Shown here piece after piece: positions 1,557 to 61,214 of a stretch of DNA of 64,000 nucleotides (position 1 is its first letter; each line of letters starts with the position of its first letter). Both the position numbers and the translations under genes were made by a program. Below the pieces are notes generated by a model. That model did no database searches. It was not told the DNA's origin and worked only from the letters and a program-made list of their open reading frames with translations. Origin of the DNA: Patescibacteria group bacterium (lineage in GTDB: Bacteria > Patescibacteriota > Patescibacteriia > CAIXNZ01); the NCBI GenBank assembly GCA_028714455.1, contig JAQTMG010000001.1, positions 568-64,567 of the forward strand. The letters are read 5' to 3'.

Positions 1557-3482
1557 TTATCTTTTTAACTTTCTTATCTCATCCCTAATCTCAATCGCTT
1601 TTTCAAAATCAAGGTTTTCGGCCGCGATTTGCATTTGAGTTTCCAGCTCCACGATCAAATCTTCAAGTGAATTAACTTTCTTCAAGTCAAACTTCTCGAT
1701 TTCCTTTTCAATCGTGGCTGGTTTTTCTTTAATGGTTTTAATAATAGAAGCCGGAGTTATATTGTGCTTTTCATTATATTCAACCTGAATCTTGCGGCGG
1801 CGATTTGTTTCGTCAATGGCTTCCTTCATAGAACCAGTCATTACATCCGCGTACATTAAAACTTTGGAATCAACATTACGAGCGGCACGACCGATTGTCT
1901 GAATTAAACTTCGGGCATCGCGCAAAAAACTTTCTTTGTCAGCGTCCAAAATTGCCACCAAACCAACTTCTGGAATATCCAAGCCCTCGCGCAATAAATT
2001 AATACCGACTATCACATCATATTTGCCCCTTCTTAAATCATGGATAATTTCAGTGCGTTCCAGAGTATCGACTTCAGAATGCAAATAGGTCACCAAAATA
2101 TCTTTTTTTAATAAATATTCAGTCAAATCCTCGGCCATTTTCTTGGTTAGGGTTGTGACCAAGGTTCTGTTGCCCATTTCTTTTGTCTTGAGAATTTCAT
2201 TTACCAAATCATCGAGCTGGCCTTCTGATTTTCTGACAAAAATTTCAGGATCAATCAAGCCAGTCGGTCTGATAATCTGCTCGACCACTTGTCCCGAATT
2301 TCTAACTTCATAATCGCTAGGTGTGGCCGAAGTATAAACTACATGTTTCATGTATTTTTCAAATTCATCAAAACGCAAGGGACGATTATCATAAGCCGAG
2401 GGCAATCTAAAGCCGTTATCAATCAAATTTTTCTTTCTAGTTTTATCACCAGCATACATGCCATGAAGCTGGGGCAGGGCCTGATGCGATTCATCTATAA
2501 TCAAAAGAAAATCTTTTGGAAAAAAATCTAAAAGTGTTTTAGGCGGTTCGCCAACTGCGCGGCCATCAAAATGTCTTGAATAATTTTCAATGCCTTTGCA
2601 ATAACCAAGTTCGCGAATCATTTCCATGTCGTATCGAGTTCTTTTTTCCAAACGATGCGCTTCCAGCATGGGCAGAGTCGGCAAAACTTCTTTTAGCTCT
2701 GCTTCAATTGATTTCAAAGCGCGCTCAATTGAATCTTTTGAGGTCATAAAAGGCGAAGCTGGAAAAATATCCAATTTTTTAATTTCTTCCAAAACTTTCA
2801 AATTAACCGGCTCAATCACTTTAATCCCTTCGATCTTATCGCCAGAAAAATTTATTCTGTAGATATACCGACCATAACCTTGAACTAAATCCAAAGTATT
2901 TCCTCGTACTCTAAAGCGCCCCGAGCGCAAATCAGTGTCATTGCGTTCAAATTGAGTGTGAACCAAATGTTTAATTAAATTTTCTCTGCCAAATTCCTGA
3001 CCAACCTTAATGGTAAAAATACTTTTGCTATATTCTTTGGGATCTCCCAAGCCATAAATACAAGAAACAGAAGCCACCACAATTACATCTTCGCGTGAGA
3101 CAACTGAAGCTGCCGCTTCCAGCCGATATTCTTCAATTTTTTCATTAATCTTAATATCTTTTTCAATATAGGTATCTGTTGAGGGAACATAACTTTCTGG
3201 CTGATAATAATCATAATATGAAATAAAATAGCAAACCTTATTGTCCGGAAAATATTCTTTAAACTCTTCGTAAAGCTGACCAGCCAAGGTTTTATTGTGC
3301 GCCAAAACAAGCGTGGGTTTTTGCACGCTCTGAATTAAGTTGGCCATGGTAAAAGTTTTGCCAGAGCCAGTTACACCCAAAAGAGTTTGCTGGGGAAACT
3401 TTTTGTAACCAGTTTCAAGTTCTTTAATTGCCTTGGGCTGGTCGCCAGTGGGCTTATAAGTTGTTTTAAGTTTAAATTTCAT
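1557..3482 (-). CDS. uvrB: excinuclease ABC subunit B
   Basis: 641 aa; N-terminal MKFKLKTTYKPTGDQPKAI, Walker A GVTGSGKT, helicase motifs, C-terminal UVR domain AIEIRDEIRKL. Confidence 0.95.
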   Translation of the reverse strand: MKFKLKTTYKPTGDQPKAIKELETGYKKFPQQTLLGVTGSGKTFTMANLIQSVQKPTLVLAHNKTLAGQLYEEFKEYFPDNKVCYFISYYDYYQPESYVPSTDTYIEKDIKINEKIEEYRLEAAASVVSREDVIVVASVSCIYGLGDPKEYSKSIFTIKVGQEFGRENLIKHLVHTQFERNDTDLRSGRFRVRGNTLDLVQGYGRYIYRINFSGDKIEGIKVIEPVNLKVLEEIKKLDIFPASPFMTSKDSIERALKSIEAELKEVLPTLPMLEAHRLEKRTRYDMEMIRELGYCKGIENYSRHFDGRAVGEPPKTLLDFFPKDFLLIIDESHQALPQLHGMYAGDKTRKKNLIDNGFRLPSAYDNRPLRFDEFEKYMKHVVYTSATPSDYEVRNSGQVVEQIIRPTGLIDPEIFVRKSEGQLDDLVNEILKTKEMGNRTLVTTLTKKMAEDLTEYLLKKDILVTYLHSEVDTLERTEIIHDLRRGKYDVIVGINLLREGLDIPEVGLVAILDADKESFLRDARSLIQTIGRAARNVDSKVLMYADVMTGSMKEAIDETNRRRKIQVEYNEKHNITPASIIKTIKEKPATIEKEIEKFDLKKVNSLEDLIVELETQMQIAAENLDFEKAIEIRDEIRKLKR

Positions 3483-4111
3483 TTTTTATCAGCTATTAAA
3501 ATAATAAATTTGCTACTAAATCTATAAGGAATTTTTGCCTTAACAATTTCTGGGCGAACTTCGGATTCATAAATCTTAACCCTATAATTTTTAAAAAGTT
3601 TTTTAAGAATATTTTTGGCTTCCTGTAATTTATAAAGTGGTTCCTTGCCAATCTTAATAAATTTACCAGCAAAAGAGATTCTTTTTAAATCAGTAGCAAA
3701 ATCTATTATAACCCTTCCATTCTTATTTAAAACCCTGTCTATTTCTCTAAATACTTTCGGTAAAATTTTTCTTGGCAGAAGATGTAGGGTACCGGTGCAA
3801 AAGACACCATCAAAATAATTATCTTTAAAAGGAAATTTTTTAGTAATATCAAAAACCCTAATCTTTAATTTTGACTTATACTTAGTCGGGGTATTACTCC
3901 TCAATTTATTCAAAGCGCCCTTGTCAACGTCCGAAGCAATGACAAAATCTACCTTTTTCAATAGATTTAAATTGTAACGACCGTCGCCGCCTGCCAGATT
4001 AAGCCATCTACCTTTAATTTTAGTCTCTTCCAAAAACTTAAGGGTATCTTTATCACCCTTACCCCAAATGGATTTTCTTTTATTCTCAATTGTTTTAAGT
4101 TTAAATTTCAT
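3479..4111 (-). CDS. class I SAM-dependent methyltransferase
   Basis: 210 aa; motif LNLAGGDGRY, FDGVFCTG; start overlaps uvrB; shares 22-nt start-region duplication with uvrB. Confidence 0.75.
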   Translation of the reverse strand: MKFKLKTIENKRKSIWGKGDKDTLKFLEETKIKGRWLNLAGGDGRYNLNLLKKVDFVIASDVDKGALNKLRSNTPTKYKSKLKIRVFDITKKFPFKDNYFDGVFCTGTLHLLPRKILPKVFREIDRVLNKNGRVIIDFATDLKRISFAGKFIKIGKEPLYKLQEAKNILKKLFKNYRVKIYESEVRPEIVKAKIPYRFSSKFIILIADKK

Positions 4112-5220: not shown

Positions 5221-5772
5221 ATGGCCAGCGAGAATAAAGAGCCTGTTAGCCTGCCAGTGTATAAGACCAAACCCGAATTCTTACTAACGTTATGGGACGT
5301 TAAATCCAGACATCTACAATTATTGCGTGATGCCGTACCCGTAGCGTTTCTCTCGCCCTCAAAAAGAAAAATACCGTTGTATAGTCGAGACCAATGCGAA
5401 CAAATCGATATAATCGGAGAACACGAGGGCTTACCCATCTATTGGAAAAAACCCGACGGACTATTTACCGAGTCAGATTTAAAGAAGATGGGATTTAAAT
5501 TAGTAGCCCAGGCCAAACCTACCGGCGTCATCAAATATGAGTTCGCACGAATGGGTAATTATCTCTACCCGATATCGCAATCAATCCCCAGGCTTAAACA
5601 TAAACATCTGACTAAATTCGAACGTATACTTTGGGCGGCGGATATCGAGTCGGATCTAAAAAATCTAAAACAGAGGGAAGTTGCAGAAAAATATGGCTGT
5701 TCTCTAAAGCTGGTGTCTAAACTGAAAAAAACATTTCAAAGGCTAAATCAAGGGAGAGAGGCTAGCGTTTAA
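5221..5772 (+). CDS. hypothetical protein with C-terminal HTH-like segment (183 aa), GC-elevated
   Basis: Strong SD aacaaggaggtaaaATG; C-terminal KQREVAEKYGCSLKLVSKLKK resembles an HTH; GC clearly higher than flanks. Confidence 0.6.
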   Translation: MASENKEPVSLPVYKTKPEFLLTLWDVKSRHLQLLRDAVPVAFLSPSKRKIPLYSRDQCEQIDIIGEHEGLPIYWKKPDGLFTESDLKKMGFKLVAQAKPTGVIKYEFARMGNYLYPISQSIPRLKHKHLTKFERILWAADIESDLKNLKQREVAEKYGCSLKLVSKLKKTFQRLNQGREASV

Positions 5773-7400: not shown

Positions 7401-10085
7401 ATGTTTTTAAAAAAATTAGAAATTCAGGGTTTCAAATCTTTTGCCAATAAGATTGTTTTGGAATTTCCAGAAAAAGCCAAAAACACCAGGGGTATCACGG
7501 CTGTGGTCGGTCCAAATGGCTCGGGCAAGTCAAATACGGCCGATGCCATCCGCTGGGCTTTGGGCGAACAGAGCATCAAGATGCTGCGCGGCAAAAAAAG
7601 CGAGGATGTCATCTTTACTGGTTCTGACAAGAAAGCGCGCATGGGTTTTGCCGAGGTTTCTTTATTTTTGGATAATCACGATAAATCGGCTGACATTGAT
7701 TATGAAGAATTAATTATTACGCGCCGCGTCTACAGAAACGGCGACAGCGGATATCTTATCAATAACGCCAAGGCGCGTCTGGCTGACATTCAGTTGCTTT
7801 TAGCCAAAGCCAATTTTGGCCAGCGCAGTTATTCCATCATCGGCCAAGGCATGGCTGATTCTGTTTTGTCTGCTTCACTCCAAGAGAGAAAAGAACTTTT
7901 TGATGAGGCAGTCGGTGTTCGCCAGCTGCAGATTAAACGCGAACAGGCGCTCAATAAATTTAAAGCAACCCGAGACAATCTGGCGCAGACGGCAGTTACT
8001 CTGTCAGAAATAGAACCGCGAATAAGATCGCTTACCAGACAGGTAAAAAAACTGGAGAAGCGCGAAGAGTTTGAAAAAGAGCTAAAAGTCATTCAGCTTG
8101 ATTACTTCGCCCAGATCTGGCAGCGGCTGGAAAAAAACCAAAAAGACATAGAAATTAAAAAAAATGAGCTGGATAAAACCGCGTCTTCTTTAAGTGAGAA
8201 AATTCAGATCATCGAAAGCAAAATTAATGAATCATCGGCAGAGAGTTCGCGCCAGGTTCTTTTTGAAAAAATCCAGAACGAATATAATAATTTGATTTTG
8301 CAAAAAAATTCTCTTTTACGCGACCAGACGATTTTGAAAGCCAAGTTGGATGTGGAATTTGAGAAGCAGGGCCAGGGCAATGTGGTCTGGCTCAAAAACA
8401 GAGTCGAGGAAATCCAAAATCAGATTACCAATCACAAGCAGCAACTTTCGGAGATTGAAGACCTGATCAAAAAAGAACAAACCAATTTAAAAAATAAAGA
8501 AAACAATTTTGAATCAATCAACAAGCGCTTGGAAAATGTTAGAACAGAATTAAACCAAATCAAGGGTTCTGACAGTCAGCCTTTTGAGGGAGAAAAAGAG
8601 CTGGAAGCGATTTTTGAGCTGCAACAAGATCTGGTCAACAAACTTCTGAAGGTTGAAAATATTGAAGAACTGAAAGAGCTAAAAAATCAGGCGCGAGAAG
8701 TTTCGCAAAAACTTTCTGTCTACCTGGAAAAATTAAAAAGTGTAAAAAAACAAGGTGCTGATAATCTTTTTAATCTGCAAAACCAGCTGGAAGCCTTGAG
8801 CAAGGAAAAAAATGACTTGAGCTTGGAAATTTCCCAGTTCAAATTAAACCTGAATATAAAAAATGAAAAAATCACCTCGCTCAATCAGGAAATCACCAAG
8901 CTAAATTCGGAAATTGAAAAAATCAATCAGGAAATTTCCTTGAGCCAGGTTAAAAATGACAAAAAAGAATTTACCAGCCAGGTTGAAAAACAAATTAAAG
9001 AAGCCGAGACAAAAATTTCTGATCTAGACAAAAAAATCAGCGAACAGGCAGCCAAAATTTCTGACTTTAACAAAGATGAACAGGGTAAAAAAGAAAAATT
9101 AATTGAATTGCAGAAGGAATTTCAGGAAAAACTTAATCAGCTTAGCCAGCTTAACCAAAAAATTAGTCAGTTTGATATTGAGCTGGCCAAATATTCAACT
9201 CGCAAGGAGGATATTGAAAGCGAAATCAGGCAGGAAAAACTGGAGTTAGCCACAATTTCAAAACATCGAGCCGAAAAAGAGCTGGATGAGAATGCCGCCA
9301 GCGAACAGATTCAATATCTCAAGAGGCAAATGGAAATAATCGGCGGCATTGATGAAGAGACTCAAAAAGAATACACGGAAATCAAAGAGCGCTATGACTT
9401 TTTAAAAACGCAGTCCGAAGATCTGGAAAAAGCCATTAGTTCGGCTGAAAAAATCATTGAAGAACTCGATCGCACAATCAAGGAACAGTTTGACAAAGCC
9501 TTTAAAGAAATCAACAAGGAATTCCAAAAATATTTCCGAGTACTTTTCAACGGCGGTCAAGCCGAATTGATTAAAGTTAGCGTGGATGAAATAAAAAAAG
9601 AAGAGAAAGAAGAGAAAGAGGGGGAAGAAGGCAAAGAAGGAGCAGAGGAAGAGTCGGGCGTTTTGGCCCAGGCCGAAAAATTTGTGGAAAAATTAAAGCA
9701 AAAAGAAAAAGAGAGTTACGCGGGTATTGAAATTAAAGCCGTGCCGCCTGGCAAAAAAGTAAAGTCAATAAATATGCTTTCTGGCGGCGAGCGAGCCCTC
9801 ACTTCAATCGCCTTAATTTCGGCTATTATCGCCAATAATCCTTCGCCCTTTGTCGTGCTTGATGAAGTTGACGCGGCTCTGGACGAAGCCAATTCGGAAA
9901 GGTTTAGTTATATTATTGAAGAGCTGGCCCAAAAAACTCAATTCATTGTCATTACTCATAACCGTGTGACCATGCACAAAGCCGATGTACTTTACGGCGT
10001 GACTATGGGCGACGACGGCGTTTCTAAATTACTTTCAATCAAACTGGCCGACGCCGAGGATATGGTTGGCTCGGTCAGAGGTTAA
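7401..10085 (+). CDS. smc: SMC-like chromosome segregation ATPase (894 aa), apparently hinge-less
   Basis: N-terminal Walker A VVGPNGSGKSN, long coiled coils, C-terminal signature LSGGERALTSIAL, Walker B VVLDEVDAALD, D-loop; no recognisable glycine-rich hinge in the middle. Confidence 0.85.
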   Translation: MFLKKLEIQGFKSFANKIVLEFPEKAKNTRGITAVVGPNGSGKSNTADAIRWALGEQSIKMLRGKKSEDVIFTGSDKKARMGFAEVSLFLDNHDKSADIDYEELIITRRVYRNGDSGYLINNAKARLADIQLLLAKANFGQRSYSIIGQGMADSVLSASLQERKELFDEAVGVRQLQIKREQALNKFKATRDNLAQTAVTLSEIEPRIRSLTRQVKKLEKREEFEKELKVIQLDYFAQIWQRLEKNQKDIEIKKNELDKTASSLSEKIQIIESKINESSAESSRQVLFEKIQNEYNNLILQKNSLLRDQTILKAKLDVEFEKQGQGNVVWLKNRVEEIQNQITNHKQQLSEIEDLIKKEQTNLKNKENNFESINKRLENVRTELNQIKGSDSQPFEGEKELEAIFELQQDLVNKLLKVENIEELKELKNQAREVSQKLSVYLEKLKSVKKQGADNLFNLQNQLEALSKEKNDLSLEISQFKLNLNIKNEKITSLNQEITKLNSEIEKINQEISLSQVKNDKKEFTSQVEKQIKEAETKISDLDKKISEQAAKISDFNKDEQGKKEKLIELQKEFQEKLNQLSQLNQKISQFDIELAKYSTRKEDIESEIRQEKLELATISKHRAEKELDENAASEQIQYLKRQMEIIGGIDEETQKEYTEIKERYDFLKTQSEDLEKAISSAEKIIEELDRTIKEQFDKAFKEINKEFQKYFRVLFNGGQAELIKVSVDEIKKEEKEEKEGEEGKEGAEEESGVLAQAEKFVEKLKQKEKESYAGIEIKAVPPGKKVKSINMLSGGERALTSIALISAIIANNPSPFVVLDEVDAALDEANSERFSYIIEELAQKTQFIVITHNRVTMHKADVLYGVTMGDDGVSKLLSIKLADAEDMVGSVRG

Positions 10086-10099
10086 TAAAAATATAAAAA

Positions 10100-10128
10100 A
10101 GAGAGCCGACATTCAGCTCTCTTTTGCT
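10100..10128. terminator. bidirectional terminator
   Basis: agagagc-N9-gctctct hairpin followed by T-run. Confidence 0.6.
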
Positions 10129-10132
10129 TTAT

Positions 10133-10528
10133 CTATTCGACTTTACTCCCAAATTCCTCATCGGCCGTGTCTCTTTCAGCCGCTTTCTTGGTTTTGTGAA
10201 TAACTTTGTCAATGTGATTGGCTGGAGCATAAATAGTAAAAAGCTTCATTGAGCTTTTACCAGTGTTCACAAAGTTGTGTCTGGTGCCCGGAGTAACCAC
10301 CACCACATCACCTTTTACTACTGGCGATTCCACGCCATCCAAAATCGCCTTGCCCTCGCCCTTTAAAAAAATCAAAGTCTGTTCAACATGGGCATGTGTC
10401 TCTTCGCCGATATCCCCGCCCTTAGGGATACTCATGACGACCAACTGGCTCTTGGCACCGGTAAAAAGAACCTGTCTGAAAAATTTATTCTTCTTGGTCG
10501 CGCTGATAATGTTTGTCTGGAAAGACAT
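10133..10528 (-). CDS. cupin domain protein
   Basis: 131 aa; G(X)5HXH-like motif EETHAHVEQTLIFLKGEG, PGTRHNFVN. Confidence 0.75.
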   Translation of the reverse strand: MSFQTNIISATKKNKFFRQVLFTGAKSQLVVMSIPKGGDIGEETHAHVEQTLIFLKGEGKAILDGVESPVVKGDVVVVTPGTRHNFVNTGKSSMKLFTIYAPANHIDKVIHKTKKAAERDTADEEFGSKVE

Positions 10529-27207: not shown

Positions 27208-27456
27208 TTACTTGCGAATGGCCAGGAACCGCCAACTGCCAAGCCACTTACTGTCAACATTGTTCCAGTAGAGGTTGAGCTTGCGCTTGCCATCATTGAA
27301 GACCAGGCACGGACAGTTACGATTGCCGTTGTCATTGACCCAGACCGAGCCGAGATTATACAGAATACCGCCAAAGCCACTGCCCATTGAGTACTCTCTG
27401 GACTGTATTTTATGCGGGAGCATCCTCCCTTGATATTCTGTACCAAGTATTTTCAT
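27208..27456 (-). CDS. short paralog (83 aa; possible pseudogene/remnant) of the C-terminal Cys/Trp-rich domain, ...WRFLAIRK
   Basis: GSVWVNDNGNRNCPCLVFNDGKRKLNLYWNNVDSKWLGSWRFLAIRK aligns with C-terminus of 27682..28296; GC-rich; own extended -10 promoter and ~150-nt leader. Confidence 0.45.
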   Translation of the reverse strand: MKILGTEYQGRMLPHKIQSREYSMGSGFGGILYNLGSVWVNDNGNRNCPCLVFNDGKRKLNLYWNNVDSKWLGSWRFLAIRK

Positions 27457-27681: not shown

Positions 27682-28296
27682 CTACTTGCGGACGGCCAAG
27701 AAACGGCAACAGGCACCCCAATGACCGTCACCACCGAACCAATAGAGGAAGAGCTTGCGCTCGCCATCAGTGAAGTTCAGGTACGGACAGCTACGATTGC
27801 CGAAGGCATCGACCCAGACCGAGCCGAGAGCGACGATCGGAAACTCCCGTTGAACATCCGGGTTGGCCGCTCCAAAGGCGAGCAGGTGTTCAATGCTAGC
27901 CGGCTTAAGACCCAGACCGTCAAGATGCGCCAGCGCTTCTTTGGTCGTAGCGTCTTTGTTGAGATGAACCAGAACCAATTCGGCTTCTTGCTGACCGACG
28001 CCCTGGACAGGAAAGTGCTTGTCGCTGATGTCGTCATTGACCCAGGCATATTTGCCGAGCTTGATCATCTCGGTGAGCGTCTTGCCGTAGTCCACGACCA
28101 CTCTGTAGGTGTCGCTGGCTTTTTGCCGGCCGAACATGATCAGTTCGGCAACCTGCTTGACCAACTTGCTGTCAGTGAGCAGGCGGTGCAGATCGTCGTC
28201 GCCGCCGCCCAATTCCAGGACGGCATTTGTGATCGCTTGCATTATGGACCACATTTTGCCGGCGGCCTTCAAAAACTCGCTTTTCTTTCTTGCCAT
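27682..28296 (-). CDS. hypothetical protein (204 aa) with C-terminal Cys/Trp-rich domain ...HWGACCRFLAVRK, GC-rich
   Basis: Strong SD aaaggaggatttgacaATG; the mirror-image plus-strand ORF 27634..28323 lacks ATG/SD and is rejected. Confidence 0.6.
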   Translation of the reverse strand: MARKKSEFLKAAGKMWSIMQAITNAVLELGGGDDDLHRLLTDSKLVKQVAELIMFGRQKASDTYRVVVDYGKTLTEMIKLGKYAWVNDDISDKHFPVQGVGQQEAELVLVHLNKDATTKEALAHLDGLGLKPASIEHLLAFGAANPDVQREFPIVALGSVWVDAFGNRSCPYLNFTDGERKLFLYWFGGDGHWGACCRFLAVRK

Positions 28297-28532
28297 TGTC
28301 AAATCCTCCTTTGTCGCGCTTAGCGACTCCAGTGGCTTGCCCCTTGCTTTGACTTTCAAGGCCTAAGGCTTGCCAAGTATGCTTTCATACTATCATACTT
28401 TTATAATTTTGTCAATGATAACGATTCAAAAATTAGCTAATATTAAATAAATAAATTTTTTAGCTATCTTTAGACAATAAATCCAGGCAAAGTTGACTAA
28501 GACCAAAATTTTTGCTAAACTATATTATAATA

Positions 28533-28567: not shown

Positions 28568-28650
28568 TTAAATAAAACATTCTAAAATTGTTCCGAAGGG
28601 ATGCCTTTGGCATAAATTGTAAATTGAGAATTGTAAATTGTTTCAGACTC

Positions 28651-28729
28651 CGTAGTTTCCGCCAGAGGCGGACCACGAATCGAGCTTTGCTCTGGTTCGT
28701 GGCAATGGATATCAAAAAATTAACACCTG
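28651..28729 (+). repeat. tRNA-Arg-associated leader element, copy A (identical to copy B at 60670-60752)
   Basis: CCGTAGTT + TCCGCCAGAGGCGGA hairpin + CCACGAA-N16-TTCGTGG hairpin + CAATGGATA (tRNA D-loop sequence) + TCAAAAAATTAACACCT, directly abutting tRNA-Arg 5' end. Confidence 0.7.
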
Positions 28730-28801
28730 TCCTCGTAGTTCAATGGATAGAACAAGAGCCTTCTAAGCTCTGGATTGGGGTTCGATTCCTCACGGGGACA
28801 T
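28730..28801 (+). tRNA. tRNA-Arg (anticodon UCU), no encoded CCA
   Basis: Acceptor GTCCTCG/CGGGGAC, D-arm GTTC-AATGGATA-GAAC, anticodon arm AGAGC-CTTCTAA-GCTCT, T-arm TGGGG-TTCGATT-CCTCA. Confidence 0.85.
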
Positions 28802-28906
28802 CAGTGGTTCTCGGCCAAAGGCTGATCCGCCTCTGGCGGAGATTCCTGGCGGGGTCATAAGGAGATTCGAGTTTCGTGCAAGAGCAAGAGAAATAAAAAT
28901 AAAAAT

Positions 28907-29251
28907 ATGTTTGATTTTGAAAAACTTGAAGTTTATAAAAAAGCCAAAAATATAAATGTTGAAATTTCGGAATTTTTAAAATCTGCAAATGTAGATATTT
29001 TCCTGAATAATCAGTTGAAAAGAGCTTCGTTAAGCATATTATTGAATATTGCGGAAGGTAGCGGTAGATCAACAAAAAGAGATAAAAGAAATTTTTTTGT
29101 CATTGCTCGCGGTTCGGTCTTTGAGTGCACTTCAATTTTTGATCTATTATTCACAGAGAAAGAAATTGAAATTGAAAAATATAATTATTTTTACAATCAG
29201 CTTGAAGAGATTTCAAAAATGCTATACGGTCTAATCAAAACTCATGAATAA
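28907..29251 (+). CDS. four-helix-bundle protein (23S rRNA intervening-sequence / Avd-like family)
   Basis: 114 aa; KLEVYKKA...LKRASLSILLNIAEGSGRSTKRDKRNFFVIARGSVFECTSIFDLL pattern of TIGR02436-type proteins; flanked by inverted GCAAGAG-rich repeats (28883-28895 / 29256-29280). Confidence 0.75.
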   Translation: MFDFEKLEVYKKAKNINVEISEFLKSANVDIFLNNQLKRASLSILLNIAEGSGRSTKRDKRNFFVIARGSVFECTSIFDLLFTEKEIEIEKYNYFYNQLEEISKMLYGLIKTHE

Positions 29252-29288
29252 ACTCTTGCTCGTATCTCTCGTCTCTTGCTGATATCAT

Positions 29289-43227: not shown

Positions 43228-43487
43228 AAAGGGCTTTTAAACAAGCCCTCAATTATCAGTGGCGTGGACCCATATATCTCCAGGTCTGGAATGAACCTTT
43301 GGAGAAACGGCGCTAGCGTAAATAACCAGATGGTTAATTTATCTTTGCGCCAACCCTGTCTTATGACGGGCGCCGACATTCCTTGCTATGGAATCTAAAC
43401 CACTGACAAAATTAACTTACCAAAGACTCATTAAACTGTCAAGAATAAAAAAGTCCTTTGATATTATCGCGGGACTTGGGCGGCTTA

Positions 43488-43628
43488 GGGCCGATAGAGA
43501 CCGGCCGTGAGCAAATAGGTATAATCGCACAGAACGGACTGCCACAGCGGCCTTGGCCAATGAGACCCGAAAGAGGTTATTGATGGAGCCGTCGCAAAAC
43601 CCTTGAACCGTTGCCACAGTTTTTTCAT
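43488..43628 (-). CDS. small ORF (46 aa, Trp-rich) in GC-rich non-coding block
   Basis: Strong SD aaaggaggacttttcATG; terminator agtcc-N15-ggact + T-run downstream (minus strand); not in ORF track. Confidence 0.3.
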
Positions 43629-43995
43629 GAAAAGTCCTCCTTTACTTTGTTGATGTTAATATATTGAAATTAATTCGATAAGTCAAGCTTGACTTTTGTT
43701 ATATTTTAGCTTATTATAATAGTAATCCCGAAAGGGATTTTGTTTTTTGAGAATAGGTATTAGGTAATAGTTATTAGGAAATGGAATAAATTTCTTATCG
43801 CCAATACCTATTGCCAAATACCCAATATCCAGCACACCGCCTTCGTCCCGAACTATATCTCGCTTTGCTCAATAAGTTCGGGATAAATCTAATGGTTAGC
43901 CATAGTCCGCCGAAGCACGAAGTGCGAAGGCGGAGACACCGCGCTTTTCCGCCAGAGGCGGACCCGCCTACGGCGGGCAATGCGGTTAAATAAAT

Positions 43996-44250
43996 ATGTA
44001 TTATTTATATATTTTAAAAAGTTTAAAAGACGAAGGATATTATATTGGAATTACAGATAGCACCCTAGATCGACTCAAGGAACATAATCAGGGCAAGGTA
44101 AGATCGACAAAAAGTCGCAGACCATTTATCCTAAAATATTCTGAAAATTATAATACAAAAACTGAAGCAAGAGAAAGAGAGATTCAGCTGAAAAGAAACT
44201 GCAAAATCCGCAAAGAACTTTTACTAAAACTGAAATTTAGTGTTAAATAA
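43996..44250 (+). CDS. GIY-YIG nuclease family protein (84 aa)
   Basis: MYYLYILKSLKDEGYYIGITDSTLDRLKEHNQG — GIY-YIG motif. Confidence 0.8.
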   Translation: MYYLYILKSLKDEGYYIGITDSTLDRLKEHNQGKVRSTKSRRPFILKYSENYNTKTEAREREIQLKRNCKIRKELLLKLKFSVK

Positions 44251-44257
44251 ATATCAC

Positions 44258-44329
44258 GCCGCCATCGTCTAATGGTTAGGACACCGCGCTTTCAATGCGG
44301 TAATCGGGGTTCGATTCCCCGTGGCGGTA
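44258..44329 (+). tRNA. tRNA-Glu (anticodon UUC), no CCA
   Basis: Acceptor GCCGCCA/TGGCGGT (G1.U72), D-arm GTCT-AATGGTTA-GGAC, anticodon arm CCGCG-CTTTCAA-TGCGG, T-arm CGGGG-TTCGATT-CCCCG. Confidence 0.8.
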
Positions 44330-44578
44330 CTTGTCCACAGTTGTCATTCTTTCAGTTGAATTTTTCCCCCGAAAAATTCTAACATCATTTGCCAGGCAGT
44401 ACTATTAAAAACCCCGCGACTATCTCGCGGGTTTTTTATTCTTGACAAAATTAAAAAATTTTGTTAAAATAATCTATCGTTCATTGATAAAAAAGACTGT
44501 TTAAACAGTTTTAATAAATATAAATAAAAGATTTTGTGATGGGTGCCAAAACGCATTCCTAGCCATAAGGAGGAACTG

Positions 44579-49100: not shown

Positions 49101-49133
49101 GGCCACTTAGCCAAGCAGTAAGGCAAGGATCTG
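49101..49133 (+). pseudogene. degenerate 5'-half copy of tRNA-Cys
   Basis: GGCCACTTAGCCAAGCAGTAAGGCAAGGATCTG vs genuine GGCCTGATAGCCAAGTGGTAAGGCGAGGGTCTG 20 nt downstream. Confidence 0.5.
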
Positions 49134-49153: not shown

Positions 49154-49225
49154 GGCCTGATAGCCAAGTGGTAAGGCGAGGGTCTGCAAAACCCTTATTC
49201 GTGGGTTCGATTCCCACTCAGGCCT
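49154..49225 (+). tRNA. tRNA-Cys (anticodon GCA), no CCA
   Basis: Acceptor GGCCTGA/TCAGGCC, anticodon arm AGGGT-CTGCAAA-ACCCT, T-arm GTGGG-TTCGATT-CCCAC. Confidence 0.85.
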
Positions 49226-60464: not shown

Positions 60465-60488
60465 AAATTGTTTCACGTGAAACAATTT
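60465..60488. promoter_or_regulatory. 24-bp perfect palindrome AAATTGTTTCACGTGAAACAATTT
   Basis: Seen directly; candidate operator upstream of tRNA cluster. Confidence 0.35.
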
Positions 60489-60548
60489 TCATGTTTTTGA
60501 AAACAATATATATAAATTTCCCGACTGGATTTGAACAATATCAAATTC

Positions 60549-60600
60549 GAGGGCCAAGAAATATATAGCCCTCGGGCAGATACAAGTTTATGTATAATTA
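60549..60600. repeat. ~50-bp repeat unit (GGCCAAGA...GGGCAGATACAAGTTTATGTATAATT), copy 1
   Basis: Paralogous to 60852-60890 and 60897-60935; inverted copies at 60655-60676 and 60990-61008. Confidence 0.6.
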
Positions 60601-60669
60601 GCAATAATCGTATTTAACGTTAAATCGATAAGTGCGATTATAATTCAGGCCTTACGCAGACTTGTATCT

Positions 60670-60752
60670 GCCCTCGTAGTTTCCGCCAGAGGCGGACCAC
60701 GAATCGAGCTTTGCTCTGGTTCGTGGCAATGGATATCAAAAAATTAACACCT
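60670..60752 (+). repeat. tRNA-Arg-associated leader element, copy B (100% identical to copy A core)
   Basis: GCCCTCGTAGTT (tRNA nt 1-12) + 45-nt double hairpin + CAATGGATA (D-loop) + TCAAAAAATTAACACCT, then the complete tRNA. Confidence 0.7.
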
Positions 60753-60824
60753 GCCCTCGTAGTTCAATGGATAGAACAAGGGACTCCTAAGCCTTAGATG
60801 GTGGTTCGATTCCTCCCGAGGGCA
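60753..60824 (+). tRNA. tRNA-Arg (anticodon CCU), no CCA; two stem mismatches
   Basis: Acceptor GCCCTCG/CGAGGGC perfect; D-arm identical to tRNA-Arg(UCU); anticodon loop CTCCTAA; A31.G39 and T51.T63 mismatches. Confidence 0.6.
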
Positions 60825-60851
60825 TTAAATTGTGTATAATTGGCCAAGATA

Positions 60852-60935
60852 AAAAAGGGGCCAGCCCAGATACAAGTTTGTGTGTAGGCCTAAGAAAATG
60901 GGCCTGCCCCGATAAAAGTTTATGTGAAAAATAGT
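60852..60935. repeat. repeat units 2 and 3 (..CCCAGATACAAGTTTGTGTGTAGG.. / ..CCCCGATAAAAGTTTATGTG..)
   Basis: Direct repeats after tRNA-Arg; unit 3 is inverted partner of the sequence abutting tRNA-Ala. Confidence 0.55.
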
Positions 60936-61002
60936 TTTATGCATTGTTTGTATTGCGTACGAAAAAATACGCTTCAAACATTGAGCACACAGACTTTTAT
61001 CG

Positions 61003-61075
61003 GGGCCGCTAGCTCAGCTGGTAGAGCGCTTCCATGGCATGGAAGAGGCCAGGGGTTCAAGTCCCCTGCGGTCCA
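61003..61075 (+). tRNA. tRNA-Ala (anticodon GGC), no CCA
   Basis: G3.U70 identity pair; D-arm GCTC-AGCTGGTA-GAGC; anticodon arm CTTCC-ATGGCAT-GGAAG; T-arm AGGGG-TTCAAGT-CCCCT. Confidence 0.8.
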
Positions 61076-61140
61076 AAGCGAAATTAACATAAAATTGCTC
61101 AAAGTATAAACGGGCCTGCCCGCCAAAGCTTTGCGAAGGC

Positions 61141-61214
61141 GGGCAATTAGCTCAGCTGGTTAGAGCGTACGATTCACATTCGTAAGGTCACTGGTTCAAT
61201 TCCAGTATTGCCCA
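61141..61214 (+). tRNA. tRNA-Val (anticodon CAC), no CCA
   Basis: Acceptor GGGCAAT/ATTGCCC; anticodon arm TACGA-TTCACAT-TCGTA; T-arm ACTGG-TTCAATT-CCAGT. Confidence 0.8.

Follow-up and report, generated by a model that had tools for sequence, protein, structure and literature searches.

Displaced tRNA Fragments and GC-Rich Double Hairpins Before the tRNA-Arg Genes of a Patescibacteria Genome: A Candidate Relic of a tRNA-Invading Cassette

Introduction

Integrative elements that target tRNA genes, including phages, ICEs and genomic islands, rebuild the tRNA gene from their own sequence and displace its original end, and such events can stack at one site. Among known integrases, the large majority target the 3′ part of the gene. 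The loci described in this work are found in a 64-kb stretch of Patescibacteria DNA (the whole 64,000 nucleotides are called the window below) and share with these elements a regenerated tRNA gene and an original end left as a displaced fragment. They differ in that it is mostly the 5′ part that has been replaced, the element spans 40–300 nt, no integrase is present, and a hairpin splits the fragment a few nucleotides from the junction.

Phages T4 and T6 encode the free-standing GIY-YIG endonuclease SegB, which cleaves within tRNA genes and recognises the T-psi-C motif; repair of its cut by homologous recombination leads to co-conversion of the flanks and to segmental amplification, and can yield segmental duplications (PMC2330249, PMC13096335). 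The loci described here resemble this system in that a GIY-YIG gene is located directly beside tRNA genes, abutting tRNA nt 1 in 7 of about 17 cases. In contrast to SegB, the putative nuclease ORF in the window has 84 aa, consists of a UPF0213/YhbQ-like catalytic domain only and lacks the DNA-binding part of SegB. Moreover, the hosts are cellular CPR genomes rather than phages, the hairpin being present on only 6 viral contigs among the matches listed, and displaced tRNA fragments and GC-rich double hairpins belong to the build. Neither Arg locus of the window carries a nuclease ORF; the sole GIY-YIG ORF of the window is at the tRNA-Glu locus, and no DNA-binding domain is recognisable in it.

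The insertion sequences of CPR rRNA genes, which are not introns, encode GIY-YIG or 23S_rRNA_IVP proteins, and tRNA genes are not mentioned in that report (PMC11270868). Both the host phylum and the kinds of ORF agree with what is seen here (GIY-YIG at tRNA-Glu, 23S_rRNA_IVP at 28907–29251). However, the rRNA insertions interrupt their gene, whereas here a complete tRNA gene is kept beside dead fragments. Similarly to REP/BIME and MITE sequences, the hairpins described below are short, GC-rich and present in many copies, with covarying stems, mainly outside essential sequence. Unlike REP/BIME, they form a tandem pair of 15-nt hairpins rather than inverted REP doublets, are not flanked by a target-site duplication (TSD), are not known to be associated with a RAYT or transposase, and are tightly coupled to the ends of tRNA fragments. 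Archaeal split, permuted and multi-intron tRNAs offer a further likeness, with gene pieces, GC-rich complementary break points and nested layouts (as in the tRNA-Ala locus of L003 and in L207). In contrast to archaeal split tRNAs, the 24 loci considered below have a complete uninterrupted gene beside the fragments, and the fragments are decayed (T-loop U55 changed to C, acceptor pairing broken). Neither a bulge-helix-bulge motif nor a splicing endonuclease was found at the fragmented tRNA loci, and nothing suggests that the pieces are joined. Our literature searches turned up no account of such tRNA fragments or of hairpin inserts in CPR.

In this paper, we describe the anatomy of the two Arg loci, the integrity and conservation of tRNA-Arg(CCU), the displaced 5′ end of tRNA-Arg(UCU), a tract shared by both loci, and the family-wide architecture with its GIY-YIG association.

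Anatomy of the Locus Upstream of tRNA-Arg(CCU)

The sequence GCCCTCGTAGTT occurs exactly at 60670–60681 and again at 60753–60764, where it forms nt 1–12 of tRNA-Arg(CCU) (locus B; Table 1). Between this upstream fragment and the gene lie 71 nt, giving a relic of 83 nt in total. A 45-nt insert, TCCGCCAGAGGCGGACCACGAATCGAGCTTTGCTCTGGTTCGTGG, follows the fragment; it occurs exactly twice in the window, at 28658–28702 and 60682–60726 (matches in 0 of 100 shuffles), and its predicted fold, named E1, consists of two hairpins, hp1 and hp2 (−27.2 kcal/mol, z = −5.6). The second of these is 28/30 identical to a hairpin in L212. The 9 nt after the hairpins equal tRNA nt 13–21; hence, the upstream copy comprises 21 nt of the gene, split by the hairpins, and is not a 12-nt repeat on either side of an insert. 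An earlier note on this DNA had reported the 12-nt repeat, the 45-nt hairpin insert and two stem mismatches in the tRNA, A31.G39 and T51.T63, and all of these sequence statements were confirmed.

No ORF is present in 60670–60752 or 28646–28728, and an outer 3′ fragment is absent at locus B. The spacer and leader upstream of tRNA-Arg(CCU) contain no promoter consensus, so the leader is probably transcribed with the tRNA. When the leader was scanned against the covariance models of Rfam 15, only the tRNAs themselves were recovered, both at the gathering threshold and with E relaxed to 10. tRNA-Arg(CCU) is a healthy single gene behind an 83-nt relic, in the order old 5′ end, hairpins, spacer and regenerated gene.

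Table 1. Coordinates of the tRNA genes, displaced fragments, hairpins and ORF at the Arg and Glu loci of the window.
Feature	Position	Strand	Remarks
Displaced tRNA-Arg 5′ fragment, nt 1–12 (GCCCTCGTAGTT)	60670..60681	+	Exact copy; orthologous fragments at the same place in L002, decayed in L085
GC-rich double hairpin E1	60682..60726	+	hp1 60682–60696 (TCCGCCAGAGGCGGA), hp2 60697–60726
Tail of displaced fragment, tRNA nt 13–21 (CAATGGATA)	60727..60735	+	Matches tRNA nt 13–21
AT-rich 17-nt spacer (TCAAAAAATTAACACCT)	60736..60752	+	Identical in copy A; different in L002 and L085
Intact tRNA-Arg(CCU) gene	60753..60824	+	ARAGORN; Rfam RF00005; identity in L002; covariation across orthologues
Displaced original 5′ end of tRNA-Arg(UCU) (GACTCCGTAGTT)	28646..28657	+	Equals functional 5′ end of the L211 orthologue
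Copy A: E1 28658–28702, tail CAATGGATA 28703–28711, spacer 28712–28728	28658..28728	+	100% identical to 60682–60752
Intact tRNA-Arg(UCU) gene	28729..28800	+	nt 1–28 match the CCU gene except nt 2
Displaced 3′ fragment of tRNA-Arg(UCU): TCAGTGGTT, E2, GATTCCTGGCGGGGTCA	28801..28857	+	Canonical double hairpin E2 at 28810–28840
Pseudo-tRNA-Glu 5′ fragments with three hairpin inserts	43839..43995	+	z = −3.6; match tRNA-Glu nt 1–44 against 44258–44330
GIY-YIG (UPF0213-like) ORF, 84 aa, catalytic domain only	43996..44250	+	Pfam PF01541, E = 5.8e-14; PDB 1ywl, 1zg2
Intact tRNA-Glu(UUC)	44258..44330	+	7 nt past the end of the GIY-YIG ORF (44250)

Integrity and Conservation of tRNA-Arg(CCU)

The gene was called by ARAGORN as Arg(cct) at 60752–60825 and by Rfam at 60753–60824, where its RF00005 score of 62.1 bits compares with a gathering score of 29 and with 63–72 bits for the other tRNAs of the window. 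It is identical over 72/72 positions in L002, a relative with 85% identical YchF. Across six distinct tRNA-Arg(CCU) orthologues, 95.2% of stem cells are paired and eight pairs have changed on both sides. As to the two mismatches of the cloverleaf, A31.G39 is kept in five of these six orthologues, and the 51.63 mismatch is common to the window and L002. Additionally, the CCU and UCU genes occupy different syntenic contexts, each conserved in relatives. The gene thus has a cloverleaf above the gathering threshold, a correct anticodon loop and the conservation pattern of purifying selection, as a functional tRNA would. The earlier note had taken the mismatches as signs that the CCU gene may be a decaying duplicate; the ARAGORN call and the Rfam score are those of a normal CCU gene, and together with the identity in L002 and the conserved orthologues, A31.G39 among their shared features, they rule out a tRNA pseudogene.

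Displaced Ends of tRNA-Arg(UCU)

At the second Arg locus (locus A), the upstream version of the 5′ end reads GACTCCGTAGTT, and the gene starts with GTCCTCGTAGTT. The promoter and leader of this locus align to those of L212, L211 and L130. In the window and in L130, the same UCU promoter and leader run into the pseudo-fragment, and the functional UCU 5′ end of L211 equals the pseudo-fragment of the window. In L209 and L212, the site is ‘empty’, consisting of promoter, leader and tRNA. Filled (window, L130) and empty (L209, L212) orthologous UCU sites are therefore both found among relatives. At the UCU locus, the native promoter and leader thus lead into the fragment, which is therefore the displaced original 5′ end of the gene.

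A 3′ fragment of the gene is displaced as well. Its acceptor 3′ strand, CGGGGTC, pairs with GACTCCG of the displaced 5′ fragment, and the same 3′ fragment structure is found in L211 and L130. The 5′ and 3′ fragments of locus A may represent separate events because L211 has only the 3′ fragment.

A XerD-like gene is located 1.5 kb upstream of locus A and is syntenic in relatives with the empty site. An integron attC-like or Xer-mediated insertion was considered and rejected: no feature supports it, and the XerD-like gene is a conserved syntenic neighbour. Between tRNA-Arg(UCU) and tRNA-His, a 23S_rRNA_IVP ORF (28907–29251) has inverted repeats on both sides.

Gene Conversion and Age of the Relic

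The two Arg loci share a tract of 106 nt (28651–28756 and 60675–60780) in which only tRNA nt 2 (28730/60754) is mismatched. Upstream of this tract, they are unrelated except for a weak 15-nt resemblance, and the tRNA bodies beyond its downstream end have 11 differences in 45 positions. Compared with the two leaders of the window, those of the orthologous loci in L002 and L085 have diverged far more. This sharp-bordered tract of near-identity, closer than orthologues, supports a recent gene conversion between the two Arg leaders, as judged from the alignments. The earlier note had proposed conversion of the CCU leader from the UCU locus. Its conversion stands, with the alignment past the element delimiting a tract between unrelated flanks; its direction does not follow, as the spacer, hp2 and acceptor-strand signals conflict. 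The window spacer resembles the UCU leader of L211 (15/17), and a leader of this build was already present at the CCU locus before it diverged from those of L002 and L085. In the UCU gene, the acceptor 5′ strand reads GTCCTCG, which is CCU-like, the UCU consensus in L130, L209, L211 and L212 being GACCCCG/GACTCCG; this speaks for a transfer of at least the tRNA part in the CCU-to-UCU direction. In our reading, the identical copy at the UCU locus arose by isoacceptor gene conversion through the near-identical first 28 nt.

A CCU relic of the same build occurs in L002 and L085 and is absent from L003, L088 and L005 (YchF 70–75% identical); therefore, it is old and vertically inherited. A YchF search of genome contigs gave almost only Clostridia, with L005 as the sole useful relative, and no entry exactly matched the YchF protein of the window. 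The relic diverges much faster than the tRNA: hp2 has been replaced in L002 and cut to 11 nt in L085, and the spacers differ. Relative to shuffled sequences, the fold of the leader has z = −0.9 in L002 and +0.5 in L085.

The Double-Hairpin Family and Its Recurrent tRNA Architecture

The hp1 element of E1 is a member of a double-hairpin repeat that is widespread in Patescibacteria, was hit on at least 120 contigs from metagenomes and corresponds to no Rfam family. Among the matches listed, 103 of 131 copies contain the canonical 30-nt double hairpin, and hp2 has covarying pairs (UA 43 / CG 20 and AU 33 / CG 28). Within the 64-kb window, these hairpins occur only at tRNA loci. Most metagenome copies lie outside tRNA contexts, in intergenic regions and, in some cases, apparently in coding DNA. 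The metagenome sample was selected by a pattern starting with AGTT, a D-loop motif, which inflates the tRNA association, and the 6-mers before the hairpin stem (NAGTTT) are set by the same requirement. Copies outside the search prefix are preceded by T-rich sequence; most of them are second hairpins of the same modules.

A 5′ fragment, hairpins and an intact tRNA on the same strand were found together at 24 loci among the matches listed (22 metagenomic loci, the window and L002), covering seven tRNA identities: Arg, Val, Pro, Asn, Gly, Ala and Ile. The tRNA-Glu locus of the window has the same architecture. In all 24 loci measured, the fragment continues past the hairpins with a tail of 2–13 nt that matches its own intact tRNA. 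The position of the hairpin varies, lying after nt 12–13, 16–17 or 28, and the fragment ends 2–13 nt past the hairpin at any of these positions; therefore, the junction is coupled to the hairpin. The sequence upstream of the fragment and that upstream of the gene are generally unrelated, which argues against local tandem duplication and for import via homology within the tRNA. Tandem duplication of leader and 5′ part was accordingly rejected as a general origin.

Nested genes with both outer halves kept are found at locus A of the window, in L128, L191 and L207, and at tRNA-Ala of L003. In the window, four of nine tRNA genes (Arg-UCU, Arg-CCU, Glu and Cys) have their own cast-off 5′ fragments, and at two others (Ala and Val) hairpins overlap the 5′ ends. 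The 5′ pseudo-half of tRNA-Cys, at 49154, has no hairpin. Hairpin-interrupted tRNA copies are missed by tRNA finders, and ARAGORN called them only with the insert removed. In L100, L111, L208 and L127, such copies occur with no intact gene called nearby, and they look degraded. A D-loop tRNA intron was rejected as an explanation of the insert, since the locus retains a whole tRNA gene without interruption, bacteria are not known to possess the splicing endonuclease, and a group I intron would be much larger than this insert. A Logan contig ends inside the hairpin, and such repeats break assemblies.

GIY-YIG ORFs Between Fragment and tRNA

At the tRNA-Glu locus, a canonical double hairpin lies at 43948–43977, and its hp1 with flanks (19 nt, 43946–43964) is identical to 28656–28674 and 60680–60698. 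Here, the GIY-YIG ORF is placed between the pseudo-tRNA-Glu fragment and the intact tRNA-Glu, and the same layout is found in L089, L121, L166, L175 and L180. Such ORFs occupy exactly the spacer position. In 0.93 Mb, the seven ORFs (of about 17) that abut a tRNA are on its strand and have a frame end −6 to +11 nt from tRNA nt 1; the adjoining genes are Glu, Asn, Ile, Gly or Pro, and the count includes the ORF of the window. Among GIY-YIG ORFs not tied to a search hit, only one of about six abuts a tRNA.

In the 84-aa protein, PF01541 is the only match above the Pfam curated cut-off, with a weak sub-threshold T5orf172 overlap, and its nearest solved proteins are UPF0213 proteins of 96–107 aa. 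No NCBIfam model matches it, and a recognisable DNA-binding domain is absent. With a GIY-YIG catalytic domain only, sequence-specific homing stays hypothetical.

Origin of the Structures

The reading that we favour, with moderate confidence, is that the relic is an ORF-less remnant of a tRNA-invading, self-compensating Patescibacteria cassette, and that the Arg loci were homogenised by conversion. The full cassette would consist of hairpins, a small GIY-YIG nuclease ORF and a replacement tRNA part. Since it supplies this part itself, the invaded gene would stay functional while the original end is pushed aside. We infer that nuclease-initiated, homing-like recombination creates these structures, and that the hairpin is the end module of the cassette itself and not a later coloniser. 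Transcription probably includes the relic as a long 5′ leader of the tRNA, which RNase P would remove. For a classical homing endonuclease, it is awkward that the regenerated tRNA would keep any tRNA-based target site. Additionally, because hairpins occur far from tRNAs and only one of about six untied GIY-YIG ORFs is at a tRNA, the hairpin, the ORF and the fragment may be independent colonists of ‘safe’ spots.

The likeliest alternative separates the two components and involves neither nuclease nor cassette. A partial 5′ duplication of the tRNA, by illegitimate or unequal recombination, would have been followed by the landing of a REP/MITE-like hairpin at a T-rich site (..GTT^) in the dead copy, where insertions are neutral, with conversion later homogenising the Arg loci. 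The occurrence of the hairpin repeat in many non-tRNA contexts, the T-rich sequence before copies not selected by the search prefix and the hairpin-free 5′ pseudo-half of tRNA-Cys all agree with such a history, as do L128, in which about 12 nt of leader are duplicated along with the fragment, and dead tRNA copies with hairpins in all three loops (D, anticodon and T), all containing TT. We nevertheless judge it rather unlikely: if the events were independent, fragment ends 2–13 nt past the hairpin at 24 loci would be unexpected, the unrelated sequences upstream of fragment and gene mean that tandem duplication is not the usual origin, and GIY-YIG ORFs repeatedly fill the spacer, ending a few nucleotides from tRNA nt 1. 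An attachment-site scar is a third reading, in which an integrase-type element entered the 5′ part of the tRNA with a replacement 5′ part and then lost its interior, leaving attL beside the regenerated gene. A regenerated gene beside a displaced fragment is indeed what characterises integrative elements that target tRNAs, the short shared tail is reminiscent of a crossover core, and in L212 a large serine recombinase gene adjoins a pseudo-tRNA-His, an ORF and an intact tRNA-His. Dozens of independent loci are equally compact (40–300 nt), however, and would each require the same near-total deletion. Furthermore, no integrase or element body between attL and attR is found at the Arg locus, nor an integrase at the other loci; the XerD-like gene near locus A is syntenic in relatives with the empty site, and the usual integrase preference for the tRNA 3′ part points the other way. 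We regard such a scar as improbable.

A functional role of the leader has a similarly slim chance. The hairpins and the tRNA-like fragment might aid tRNA-Arg expression, for example by directing processing, by a stabilising effect or by decoying the 3′ acceptor strand. The presence of the leader at both tRNA-Arg genes, its stable fold (E1), its persistence with the same build at the CCU locus of three species and its probable transcription with the tRNA, given that it contains no promoter consensus, would be in line with this. Yet the leaders diverge strongly beside an identical tRNA, the fold in L085 is no better than shuffles and that in L002 is close to them, and L209, L212, L003, L088 and L005 manage without the leader; the same hairpin is also present at unrelated tRNAs and in non-tRNA DNA, and no Rfam family matches. 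The model of the earlier note, under which the CCU gene would be a duplicate of the UCU gene in decay and insertion of the 45-nt hairpin would have created the 12-nt repeat as a TSD, accounts for the two stem mismatches, the perfect direct repeat and the identical UCU leader, but we consider it hardly credible. The duplicate is refuted by the conservation data (normal Rfam score, L002 identity, six orthologues and a lineage-typical A31.G39) and by the different conserved syntenic contexts of the two genes. A transposable element with target-site duplication fails on other grounds, as no direct repeats were created at the termini: the tRNA sequence resumes past the hairpins, the repeats of locus A and L113 are imperfect, their fragments differing from the 5′ end of the gene, and the fragment of locus A is the native gene start, contiguous with its promoter and leader. 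The metagenome copies, most of them outside tRNA contexts and some apparently in frame in coding sequence, speak against the TSD reading too.

Within the cassette reading, we also put forward a broader and more speculative proposal, which is possible but doubtful: a new class of miniature self-compensating cassettes that invade tRNA genes. The hairpin would mark the break, and the GIY-YIG nuclease, possibly guided by the hairpin or a cruciform, would start recombination a few nucleotides away, with the cassette supplying the new tRNA end. Repeated rounds and isoacceptor conversion would then yield nested loci, the Arg leader being an ORF-less member.

Implications

For annotation, tRNA-Arg(CCU) is to be treated as a normal gene, and the 83 nt before it, together with the matching structure at the UCU gene, should be labelled relics of mobile elements and not regulatory RNA. 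If the cassette reading is true, CPR tRNA genes would be hot spots for a compact selfish element, as is already known for rRNA genes, and the element may offer an example from nature of a minimal GIY-YIG nuclease that is guided by structure. It would also contribute to the turnover of tRNA genes between isoacceptors and perhaps across genomes.

Condition of the tRNA-Arg(CCU) gene and anatomy of its leader

The window genome belongs to the Patescibacteria (CPR), close to Candidatus Falkowbacteria. Its tRNA-Arg(CCU) gene is called normally by ARAGORN and Rfam, and its Rfam score of 62.1 bits (gathering score 29) lies inside the range of all nine tRNAs in the window (62-72 bits). An earlier note, made from the sequence alone, had pointed to a pair of inserts, a 12-nt repeat and two stem mismatches, A31.G39 and T51.T63, all of which are confirmed. 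Its reading of the gene as a decaying duplicate is refuted by the normal score and by the orthologues (L-numbers denote compared loci from relatives or metagenomes). In L002 (GCA_016927685.1; YchF 85% identical), the gene is the same at all 72 nt, including both mismatches. Six distinct orthologues have 95.2% of stem cells paired, with both sides changed in eight pairs; five of the six have A.G at 31.39, and the 51.63 mismatch is found only in the window/L002 sequence (U.G in L208, A-U in L003 and L088). The identity in L002, the stem pairing with its two-sided changes and the retention at 31.39 mark a healthy gene under purifying selection.

The 45-nt insert in front of this gene folds into two hairpins, hp1 and hp2 (-27.2 kcal/mol, z = -5.6), and occurs exactly twice within the window, while none of 100 shuffles matched. 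The preceding 12 nt had been taken as one side of a TSD-like repeat, but the 9 nt that follow the insert, CAATGGATA, were overlooked; they are nt 13-21 of tRNA-Arg(CCU). Since the tRNA sequence resumes past the insert, the upstream copy is a 21-nt piece of the gene into which the hairpins are set after nt 12, and not a TSD. Compared position by position, the two Arg loci match over 106 nt except at tRNA nt 2. The left-hand flanks bear no relation to each other, and on the right 11 of 45 positions differ between the tRNA bodies.

Features of the window and of compared loci
Feature	Position	Description
tRNA-Arg(CCU); leader	60753-60824; 60670-60752	
Start of 5' fragment, CCU locus	60670-60681	GCCCTCGTAGTT, repeated as nt 1-12 of the gene
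tRNA-Arg(UCU); leader	28729-28800; 28646-28728	
45-nt insert	60682-60726; 28658-28702	
106-nt tract	60675-60780; 28651-28756	
Displaced 3' fragment, UCU locus	hairpin 28810-28840	TCAGTGGTT, then canonical double hairpin, then GATTCCTGGCGGGGTCA
Hairpins of this type	28658, 28826, 43948/43963, 60682	only sites in the window, each at a tRNA locus
84-aa ORF, tRNA-Glu locus	43996-44250	
Stretch before pseudo-tRNA-Glu block	43228-43820	~600 nt; no convincing ORF, no Rfam match at gathering threshold
23S_rRNA_IVP / four-helix-bundle ORF (PF05635, TIGR02436)	28907-29251 (block 28878-29279)	between tRNA-Arg(UCU) and tRNA-His; bordered by inverted repeats GCAAGAGCAAGAG ... CTCTTGCTCG..CTCTTGC; block missing in L211 and L209, where tRNA-His comes directly next
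Direct repeat, 147 nt, 80% identical	27209-27355; 27683-27829	C-terminal end of a 225-aa minus-strand ORF without a Pfam family (27682-28359), plus a truncated second copy
tRNA-Cys fragment	49101-49133	diverged copy of first ~33 nt (GGCCACTTAGCCAAGCAGTAAGGCAAGGATCTG), no hairpin insert; 20 nt upstream of intact gene 49154-49225
Second element type at tRNA 5' ends	60568-60672; 60863-60905; 60901-61007; 61112-61145	first tRNA bases (GCCCTCG, GGGCC, GGGC), then inverted-repeat arm (GGCAGATACAAGT / GCCCCGATAAAAGT / CTGCCCGCC); partner arm (ACTTGTATCTGCC / ACTTTTATCGGGGC / GGCGGGC) overlaps with the beginning of the following fragment or of tRNA-Ala or tRNA-Val; single solo left arm at 60863-60905; related ends in L085 and L002
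Perfect palindrome upstream of CCU locus	60466-60489	AAATTGTTTCACGTGAAACAATTT; kept as TGTTYCACGTGRAACA in L002, L003, L005, L085, L088; may be an operator or promoter element
Nested tRNA-Ala, L003 (stretches shared with next row)	3274-3480; 3565-3875	intact tRNA-Ala(GGC) within a split second tRNA-Ala, whose anticodon loop is interrupted by an insert with the ends CCTGCCCGCC ... GGCGGGG; outer copy retains G3.U70, T-loop U55-to-C change
Units before tRNA-Val, L003		two tandem units of GGGCAATTAGCTC plus ~140-nt insert; L088 built like L003 in both rows
tRNA-His locus, L212	4170-6147	hairpin 28/30 identical to window hp2 immediately before pseudo-tRNA-His, then 68-aa ORF (no known family), intact tRNA-His, gene for a 522-aa large serine recombinase; candidate for a larger element integrated at this hot spot
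tRNA-Val(CAC)-like units, L111	~7900-8250, minus strand	at least 2 tandem hairpin-interrupted units; truncated acceptor 5' strand, T-loop TCCGAGT, no intact copy within the stretch read
Double hairpin, apparently in coding sequence, L102 and L183	~5340-5375; ~9967-10290	apparently in frame, read by eye; would encode Gly/Ser/Ala-rich stretches, e.g. SAKGGSASGG

History of the two tRNA-Arg loci

At the CCU locus (RmuC ... tRNA-Arg-Ala-Val-YchF), L002 and L085 carry leaders of like build, in which a fragment and hp1 are followed by an hp2 that differs or is shortened, by CAAYGGAT(A) and by a ~17-nt spacer; such a leader is absent at the CCU locus of L003, L088 and L005. The UCU locus (S15-XerD ... 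tRNA-Arg-His) is a plain promoter-leader-tRNA in L209 and L212. L211 has no 5' fragment there, and its functional 5' end, GACTCCGTAGTT, is the sequence of the window's pseudo-fragment, while L130 has fragment and hairpins positioned as in the window. In alignment A6, L212 and L211 have a promoter (TTGAC-17-TAAAxT) and native leader that continue into the intact gene; in the window and L130 they continue into the pseudo-fragment instead. This contiguity shows that the UCU-locus fragment is the gene's original 5' end, displaced, with a new 5' end supplied downstream, which likewise contradicts a TSD. The displaced 3' fragment of this locus, common to L211 and L130, has an acceptor strand that pairs with the displaced 5' fragment.

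Orthologous leaders have diverged strongly although the tRNA is unchanged, and yet 79 non-tRNA bases are 100% identical between the two window Arg loci. Recent homogenisation follows, and we conclude that the CCU and UCU loci undergo concerted evolution. The conversion of the leader proposed earlier is thus supported by the 106-nt near-identity with unrelated left flanks; as to its supposed origin at the UCU locus, the direction signals are in conflict. In the spacer, 15 of 17 positions agree with the UCU leader of L211. The second hairpin, hp2, equals the CCU hp2 of L085 save for a 19-nt internal deletion and one substitution (10/11), and it also matches, at 28/30, a hairpin between tRNA-Arg(UCU) and tRNA-His in L212. 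The acceptor 5' strand of the UCU gene, GTCCTCG, is one base off the CCU strand (GCCCTCG) and two or three off those of UCU genes in relatives (GACCCCG or GACTCCG), producing a U5.G68 wobble. Most likely the tRNA part, as distinct from the leader proper, moved from CCU to UCU.

A recurrent architecture at tRNA genes

The degenerate pattern 'AGTT + hp1' matched at least 120 metagenome contigs, a sample ascertained by AGTT, a D-loop-like prefix; a related pattern without the AG prefix matched only 6 viral contigs. Among the matches listed, 103 of 131 copies conform to a canonical 30-nt tandem double hairpin (consensus TCCGCCAAAGGCGGA-TCAGCCTnTGGCTGA). Covariation in hp2 is clear (outer pair UA 43, CG 20; third pair AU 33, CG 28) in copies filtered for hp2 pairing, with hp1 fixed by the search. 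Neither an Rfam family nor a literature description of the double hairpin was found, and the double-hairpin/tRNA-fragment family appears undescribed. Another, independently made short-read assembly of this organism (Logan contig SRR22315509_312830) stops at ~60704 of the window, within the insert, consistent with a repeat that breaks assemblies.

About 40 of 128 metagenomic hairpin copies among the matches listed have an intact tRNA on the same strand 40-190 nt downstream. At 24 loci (22 metagenomic from these matches, the window and L002), the pre-hairpin sequence can be aligned with the 5' portion of the downstream tRNA (Arg, Val, Pro, Asn, Gly, Ala or Ile), mostly from nt 1 or 2, with a partial fragment only in a few. 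The hairpin follows nt 12-13, nt 16-17 or nt 28, varying with the tRNA, and in every case measured the fragment runs just 2-13 nt past it, matching the locus's own tRNA. Such a short tail at every hairpin position couples the fragment end to the hairpin. Sequences upstream of fragment and gene are generally unrelated, which argues for an event using homology within the tRNA; they also counter local tandem duplication. In relatives unselected for the hairpin, the first 12 nt of the gene recur, with no more than 1 mismatch, within 400 nt upstream for 3 of 29 tRNAs, compared with 0 of 14 tRNAs in non-CPR loci and none with reversed queries. Both outer halves are kept in nests in L207, L128 and L191 and at tRNA-Ala of L003.

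The spacer between fragment and gene is filled by a same-strand ORF of ~85 aa in L089, L175 and L192 (all three Asn), L121 (Ile), L166 (Gly) and L109. At tRNA-Glu the window has a like arrangement, with pseudo-tRNA-Glu pieces and three hairpin inserts, the ORF and the intact gene. This ORF comprises only the GIY-YIG catalytic domain (PF01541, E = 5.8e-14); its closest solved structures are the UPF0213 proteins 1ywl and 1zg2, and no NCBIfam model matched. L203, L208 and L127 show the mirror order (intact tRNA, ORF, D-arm fragment, hairpins, tRNA 3' part). For 7 of ~17 GIY-YIG ORFs in 0.93 Mb of CPR loci, the open frame ends between -6 and +11 nt relative to nt 1 of a tRNA on the same strand, compared with only ~1/6 of those independent of the search hit; the link is thus genuine, though not exclusive.

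Proposed mechanism and comparison with known systems

The build observed is a complete gene beside its own displaced end or ends, with a hairpin a few nt from the junction and a nuclease ORF optional in the gap, and the structure is shown to spread between isoacceptor loci through conversion. We propose that a compact mobile cassette inserts by recombination, probably started by a break near the hairpin; it would carry a replacement tRNA end, so that insertion would be phenotypically silent. The Arg leaders would be ORF-less derivatives, with transcription starting at the upstream promoter, since the spacer lacks a promoter consensus, and trimming by RNase P thereafter. The main rival, less likely but still plausible given that the metagenome sample was ascertained through the D-loop-like prefix, holds that fragment, hairpin and ORF each colonised a neutral site independently; it is weakened by the short tail fixed after the hairpin and by the lack of leader duplication. 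That the leader serves a function is unlikely, as it decays in L085 (z = +0.5) and L002 (z = -0.9) and is missing from several relatives.

Integrative elements that target tRNA genes are integrase-driven, kilobases long and mostly use the tRNA 3' end; the cassette proposed here resembles them in that the gene is regenerated and a fragment displaced. The nearest precedent for the tRNA-adjacent GIY-YIG ORFs is phage SegB, a free-standing GIY-YIG endonuclease whose cleavage within tRNA genes leads to co-conversion and segmental amplification (PMC2330249, PMC13096335). Unlike SegB, the CPR ORF lacks any recognisable DNA-binding domain, resides in a cellular genome and is accompanied by hairpins and displaced fragments. 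CPR rRNA genes bear non-intron insertions encoding GIY-YIG and 23S_rRNA_IVP proteins (PMC11270868), and both ORF types are present at tRNA loci of the window. These likenesses lead us to file the CCU leader as a putative relic, of homing or integrative type, at a tRNA gene. On its own, the CCU locus is a relic of modest interest; its family merits a systematic census.
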